A stretch of DNA of 11,659 bases, from the IMG/VR virus record IMGVR_UViG_2690316231_000013; one strand, 5' to 3'. Position numbers and translations under genes: made by a program. Under the pieces are notes generated by a model. The model was not told the DNA's origin, made no database searches, and was given only the letters and a program-made list of their open reading frames with translations. Numbering within the stretch: the stretch's first letter is position 1; each line of letters begins with the position of its first letter. Below, piece after piece: positions 1 to 322 of this stretch. The DNA comes from a virus. Taxonomy: Duplodnaviria > Heunggongvirae > Uroviricota > Caudoviricetes.

Positions 1-287
1 AAACGATGATCTGGCAGCCTGAGTTCACAGATAAAACACTCTCCAGGAAACCCGGGGCGGTTCATCAGTAATGTTTCTTGCTGATCGCGCCAGCCGTTCT
101 GCACATCAACATTTTCATTACTGAGCAGCATTTTAACTTTGCTGACCTGCACGCCGTTGTCGATCCAGCGTTTGATCTCGCGGATACGGTCAATATCGGC
201 ATCGTTGAACAGCCGATGACCGCCGTCTGTCCGTTGCGGTTTCAGCAACCCGTAACGCCTCTGCCACGCGCGTAACGTGACAGGGAT
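1..287 (-). CDS. mlrA: MerR-family HTH transcriptional regulator fragment, probably mlrA/yehV; 5' end truncated by prophage insertion, 3' end runs off the window
   Basis: Minus-strand frame open from about 287 to position 1 translates to ...[73 protein letters not shown]..., a typical MerR N-terminal HTH. No in-frame ATG lies upstream of PVTLRAW before a stop at about 305-307. Assignment to mlrA is from memory only. Confidence 0.5.
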
Positions 288-322
288 TAAAGGAAAACCA
301 ATTGGTTTTGCAAGTTTTTATT
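288..322. other. Candidate attL / phage-host junction between the truncated regulator gene and the integrase 3' end
   Basis: Regulator homology and frame integrity end at about 285-290; the integrase stop is at 323. Core repeat cannot be defined without the other prophage end. Confidence 0.3.

Follow-up and report, generated by a model that had tools for sequence, protein, structure and literature searches.

The window, the whole 11,659-nucleotide stretch of DNA analysed here, is best explained as an IS-bounded piece of Escherichia coli chromosome that carries the left attachment junction (attL) of a lambdoid prophage in mlrA (yehV), a second cut in mlrA made by an IS, and a decayed, stx-free mosaic prophage. 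We hold this reading at a probability of about 90%. A prophage in mlrA is an already known and common phenomenon, and the double cut and the decay are annotation details; the sole new detail is the IS cut in an mlrA gene already split by a prophage. The features at the junction are:

1 to 64, plus strand: 3' (right-hand) end of an IS629/IS1203 element (IS3 family), made up of the final 22 nt of the transposase ORF and the inverted repeat that terminates the element
65 to 284, minus strand: internal fragment of mlrA (yehV), codons 17-89 (73 whole codons) plus one base of codon 90
265 to 284, no strand assigned: att core, attL copy CACGCGCGTAACGTGACAGG, which is mlrA codons 17-23 (PVTLRAW), inside the HTH
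285 to 360, no strand assigned: phage P' arm of attL, with a 16-bp palindrome and two tandem ATGGGRCAY motifs
323 to 1609, minus strand: full-length tyrosine integrase of 428 aa (Pfam Arm-DNA-bind_2, E = 2e-24; Phage_integrase, E = 5e-18)
1643 to 1897, minus strand: excisionase of the xisR type, 84 aa (Pfam DUF1233, E = 2e-29), annotated xisR in strain 2013C-4991

The mlrA fragment and the prophage junction

A sequence-only reading of the window had described positions 1-322 as a prophage junction in a MerR-family gene, probably mlrA/yehV. An ungapped comparison identified window 65-284 (minus strand) as nt 49-268 of E. coli mlrA, with 218 of 220 positions identical to K-12 mlrA (b2127), and no other MerR gene aligned. 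Both differences from K-12 are synonymous (G28, GGA>GGG; R49, CGG>CGT), and positions 65-264 are 100% identical to mlrA alleles from many E. coli strains. Another MerR paralogue as the source of the fragment is ruled out by this 99-100% nucleotide identity. The gene had been named correctly, and the MerR HTH peptide quoted for it is found in the minus-strand frame ending at base 320. The extent of the gene has to be corrected: 65-284 is mlrA, but 1-64 is IS629/IS1203. The fragment thus lies between two intruders, the IS at its 3' end and the prophage at its 5' end.

The Pfam MerR_1 profile matched the fragment above its gathering score (E = 5e-14) over profile positions 16-68 of 69. Positions 1-15 are absent, and the first HTH helix is gone. 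When window 1-340 was compared by megablast with 5,426 complete E. coli genomes, all of them gave a match; the best places span 65-340 alone, and the features annotated under them are 'mlrA' and 'tyrosine-type recombinase/integrase'. The native neighbours of mlrA, btsS upstream and yohO and yehW downstream, fall outside the window; K-12 and the lysogen 2013C-4991 both have them.

We compared four att sites: K-12 attB, the window attL, and the attL and attR of 2013C-4991. All four have the 20-bp core CACGCGCGTAACGTGACAGG in common, their flanks diverge on the expected sides, and there is an imperfect (G)ATTAA extension after the core. The deposited prophage record of BP-4795 begins exactly at this core. 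In 2013C-4991, the 5' piece of mlrA (its first 48 nt) and the region upstream lie 53 kb away beside btsS, joined to phage DNA via the same core, as had been proposed for the far prophage end of the window. Base for base, the mlrA-phage joint of the window is colinear with attL in this strain. The same attL occurs in 458 of the 5,426 complete genomes (∼8%) and attR in 475 of them. The proposed insertion of a prophage in mlrA is therefore borne out by the tyrosine integrase beside the junction and by a core common to attB, attL and attR. Two measurements made earlier from the letters were slightly off. The N-terminus is indeed lost, but 16 codons are missing and not ∼20, as codons 17-23 sit in the att core; and homology does end near the integrase stop, at a distance of 38 bp rather than ∼35 bp (identity ends at 284, the ORF with its stop begins at 323). 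The window holds the left junction only, and the far prophage end lies outside it. In the source genome we would expect attR to read phage DNA, CACGCGCGTAACGTGACAGG, ATTAATATCACAAAGC..., btsS.

An integrase with an arm-binding domain at the junction, accompanied by an excisionase, is what a yehV-type att site should show. The integrase is identical at 425 of its 428 residues (99%) to Int of the Stx1 phage BP-4795. In the gap that separates the att core from the int stop, positions 294-309 form a perfect 16-bp palindrome, AAAACCAATTGGTTTT, which might be an Int site next to the core or a weak hairpin. 2013C-4991 also has the palindrome, with a single difference in its flank, but its equivalent in BP-4795 is not palindromic. 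The two ATGGGRCAY motifs, at 338-346 and 349-357, overlap the 3' end of int and are the only ones in the window. Three copies with the same 11-bp spacing are found in the opposite arm of the 2013C-4991 attR, and the right end of BP-4795 has four to five. Judged by sequence and spacing, the tandem motifs are likely candidates for arm-type integrase binding sites.

These observations show that the prophage integrated by tyrosine-integrase site-specific recombination within the core encoding MlrA residues 17-23, in the HTH. At this junction mlrA has lost its promoter and its ATG along with codons 1-16.

Gene content and origin of the prophage

The body of the prophage and the right end of the window contain the following features:

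4419 to 5099, minus strand: exo (Pfam YqaJ)
5096 to 5543, minus strand: bet/recT remnant, N-terminally truncated and frameshifted (PHROG Bet/RecT, C-terminal part only)
5543 to 5665, plus strand: ren remnant, abutting the bet/recT remnant
8823 to 9221, plus strand: antiterminator Q (Pfam Phage_antitermQ, E = 4e-53)
9410 to 10552, minus strand: OmpC/NmpC-type porin (Pfam Porin_1, E = 4e-153), between Q and holin
11080 to 11295, plus strand: holin (PHROG)
11295 to 11550, plus strand: rrrD-type lysozyme gene, interrupted after codon 85 (Pfam Phage_lysozyme matched at no more than profile positions 3-53 of 125)
11551 to 11659, plus strand: IS5-family (ISKpn26-like) terminus, starting GGAAGGTGCGAATAAGC; strain JB2 has this sequence at one end of an element annotated to the ISKpn26 family

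Two modules can be distinguished in the prophage by their relatives. From 300 to ∼5550, the window matches BP-4795, VT1-Sakai, YYZ-2008 and phi330 at 96-98%; the matches to BP-4795, VT1-Sakai and YYZ-2008 come in 3-4 pieces and cover ∼40% of an 11.4-kb query. From 3240 to 11550, it matches the DLP12-like prophage of EC416 in one piece at 99.0%. None of the complete E. coli genomes is colinear with the whole window at 80% or more; the best reaches 72% and has the prophage at another integration site. Thus, the combination of this int module with this late module is a mosaic that is not seen joined in the 5,426-genome set. The ea22-exo-bet stretch (∼3240-5250) is common to the int-xis and DLP12-like modules and is a plausible recombination zone. 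Overall, the prophage joins an int-xis module of the yehV phages, still intact, to a DLP12-like late region.

The gene order of the late part, as read from the annotation of EC416 and from scans with Pfam and PHROG, is exo, bet', 'ren, two unknowns, ybcN, ninE, ybcO, rusA, ylcG, Q, porin, holin and lysozyme. It is the order of DLP12-type cryptic prophages (ybcN-ninE-ybcO-rusA-ylcG-quuD-nmpC-essD-rrrD). The DLP12-type prophage of EC416 differs in sitting beside ybhC with a different, 356-aa integrase, whereas the int-xis module in the window is the one specific to mlrA. Nothing separates the bet and ren remnants, so that N, cI, cro, O and P have been lost; the EC416 annotation carries the same bet'-'ren joint. 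On the right, the lysozyme gene can be followed along its EC416 counterpart as far as 11550, and the IS terminus that follows (11551-11659) is multicopy and present in 2,374 of the 5,426 complete genomes. A further sign of decay is a phage lipoprotein gene at 6151-6708 (YajG-family or hypothetical in relatives) that is frameshifted compared with the EC416 copy, its signal-peptide part and body standing in separate frames. With immunity and replication genes deleted and the lysozyme gene cut by an IS, this is not a complete inducible prophage; no structural genes lie in the window.

The window had been said to carry no stx, and this holds for a specific reason: the usual stx slot, from Q to the holin, lies inside the window and is occupied by the porin. 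The only long open frames in the Q-holin interval (9221-11080) are the porin and its antisense shadow. We found neither stx nor tRNA genes in this interval, and it has no room for stxAB. Lacking stxAB between Q and holin, the prophage cannot be classed as Shiga-toxin-converting.

The Stx1 prophages at yehV (Sp15 of VT1-Sakai, CP-933V, BP-4795 and YYZ-2008) nevertheless resemble the window in target gene, 20-bp core and near-identical integrase, in xis and the early-left genes through exo (96-98%), and in the effect on the MlrA HTH. They differ from the window, which is without stx and the Stx late region, is DLP12-like from bet onwards, carries a porin and has its immunity and replication genes deleted. 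Could the element descend from an Stx1-converting phage (Sp15/CP-933V/BP-4795 lineage) whose stx genes were removed through recombination and deletion, rather than from an stx-negative lambdoid phage that took up the int module independently? The 96-98% match of 300-5550 to BP-4795, VT1-Sakai and YYZ-2008 would fit such a descent, as would the partial homology of stx-negative yehV prophages, whose origin is uncertain, with the EDL933 Stx1 phage (PMC7175801). However, lambdoid modules are freely exchanged, so that shared int-exo sequence does not establish descent; moreover, the window matches DLP12-like, porin-carrying phages at 99% from ∼5231 on and retains nothing of stx, its upstream tRNA genes or a Stx-phage Q. 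We therefore consider a Stx1-phage ancestry possible but rather unlikely.

The closest known counterparts of the element as a whole are the stx-negative or truncated yehV prophages of O157:H7 and non-O157 strains. As described (Shaikh & Tarr 2003, via PMC5931665; PMC7175801; for O145, PMC3874044), these are likewise stx-free lambdoid prophages that occupy mlrA at the proximal site. A curli and biofilm deficit is expected for them and likewise for the window. To this the window adds the IS629/IS1203 break in mlrA.

The second cut in mlrA and the fate of its reading frame

The first 64 nt of the window aligned to the 3' end of an IS1203-family transposase and the element terminus in O157:H7 strain PV15-279. 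The TGA stop of the transposase is at 20-22, and the inverted repeat ends ...GGGGCGGTTCA. Positions 1-64 are identical (64/64 nt) to copies in 4,068 of the 5,426 complete genomes, with a median of 3 copies per genome and up to 50, some of them on plasmids. mlrA is thus cut a second time at base 64/65, after nt 268 of the gene, and the peptide MNRPGFPGE... that follows ...QQETLL in the mlrA frame is IS sequence read in reverse.

The IS-mlrA junction itself was not encountered elsewhere: megablast found no place spanning 1-340 in the 5,426 complete E. coli genomes, and exact 37-nt and 22-nt patterns (the latter GGCGGTTCATCAGTAATGTTTC) gave no hit in GTDB species representatives or JGI metagenome contigs. 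As joins to repeats at the end of a short-read contig are inferred by the assembler, the junction should be read with that caveat; IS termini at both window ends are as expected for such a contig. The remainder of the element and the target-site duplication fall beyond the window. With one side of the IS visible, a simple insertion, an IS-mediated distal deletion and an inversion cannot be told apart, and it is a possibility that the IS-bounded 11.5-kb block was moved or inverted through IS recombination. As to the order of events, we infer that the prophage came first and that IS629/IS1203 then cut mlrA after nt 268, by insertion or IS-mediated deletion, which would have left codons 17-89.

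What remains is a gene fragment, short of a complete ORF, a start codon and the C-terminal domain. The mlrA frame opens after a TAA stop at 318-320 with 11 non-mlrA codons before homology begins. There is no in-frame ATG, GTG or TTG between this stop and the mlrA homology, in agreement with the earlier statement that the frame lacks an ATG. A search for a sigma-70-like promoter in window 1-2000 was negative, so that neither an intact start codon nor a promoter, either of which had been named as evidence against a disrupted mlrA, is present at the junction. These eleven codons stand in for the native 5' end of mlrA without supplying a usable start.

In lysogens with the same junction, RefSeq/PGAP nevertheless lists a 233-aa 'MlrA' (WP_029208330.1) that spans attL and is not marked as a pseudogene. 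The start assigned to it is a phage-supplied ATT codon (window 300-302) with no Shine-Dalgarno sequence upstream, and phage-supplied IGFPLI stands for IGEVALLCDIN, making helix 1 five residues shorter. The 233-aa protein is probably an annotation artefact, a homology-driven over-extension that masks the gene disruption.

Taken at face value, this annotation would support a prophage-mlrA fusion that still gives a wholly or partly functional regulator of modulated activity, translated from the ATT or from internal starts on transcripts reading through int. The arrangement would permit it, as int and the mlrA fragment are co-oriented with no convincing terminator between them. Distal mlrA segments can encode truncated proteins, and some Congo-red affinity is regained if these are recombinantly expressed, but biofilm did not return with the truncated forms, whose binding to DNA is considered unlikely (PMC5931665). 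An ATT start is also very rare, and the first HTH helix has been replaced. Most directly, the ORF of the window is cut by the IS after codon 89 and enters IS sequence, losing the whole C-terminal domain. Ordinary lysogens could make some protein if the 233-aa hybrid were translated; here it would still be cut by the IS. A functional fusion in the window is thus very improbable.

That the mlrA piece and int are neighbours by accident, through an IS-mediated rearrangement or an assembly error and with no genuine attL, might be suggested by the IS termini at both ends, where short-read assemblies break and rearrangements occur, but this is scarcely credible and effectively refuted by the shared core and the colinearity with 2013C-4991: the mlrA-phage joint is 200 bp from the IS, exactly at the core used in 458 complete genomes, and adjoins an integrase 99% identical to BP-4795 Int.

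Predicted consequences for MlrA and curli

MlrA activates csgD (PMC3874044; PMC5931665, citing Brown 2001) and thereby curli and cellulose production. The biofilm effect suggested in the sequence-only reading is already published: a prophage in mlrA disrupts the DNA-binding motif and lowers curli production, Congo-red binding and biofilm formation (PMC3874044; PMC5931665, citing Uhlich 2013/2016 and Shaikh & Tarr 2003). In O103 and O113 strains, mlrA supplied in trans complements the defect, and excision, spontaneous or induced, regenerates native mlrA and reverses the phenotype (PMC3874044; PMC5931665). Curli can also be lost or regained via mutations in rpoS, rcsB or the csgD promoter (PMC3874044, PMC5343319).

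We predict that MlrA cannot be made from the two-lesion gene, and MlrA-dependent activation of csgD and curli should thus be lost. The IS lesion goes further than the prophage: neither prophage excision nor expression of the distal fragment could be expected to restore full-length MlrA. One might go on to propose that the IS629/IS1203 hit was selected as a 'second lock' that made the curli-off state irreversible. We find this doubtful; if true, it would mean selection against an MlrA/CsgD-dependent matrix in this lineage and not neutral decay.

For annotation, mlrA in the source genome is to be treated as a pseudogene that carries two lesions. A decayed, stx-negative prophage at yehV is also relevant to PCR schemes in which yehV junctions stand in for Stx1 phages. 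A prophage in mlrA is the published main reason for poor biofilm formation in most clinical O157:H7 strains and some non-O157 STEC, and the strain that carried this window is predicted to be curli-negative via the MlrA route, without reversion by prophage excision.
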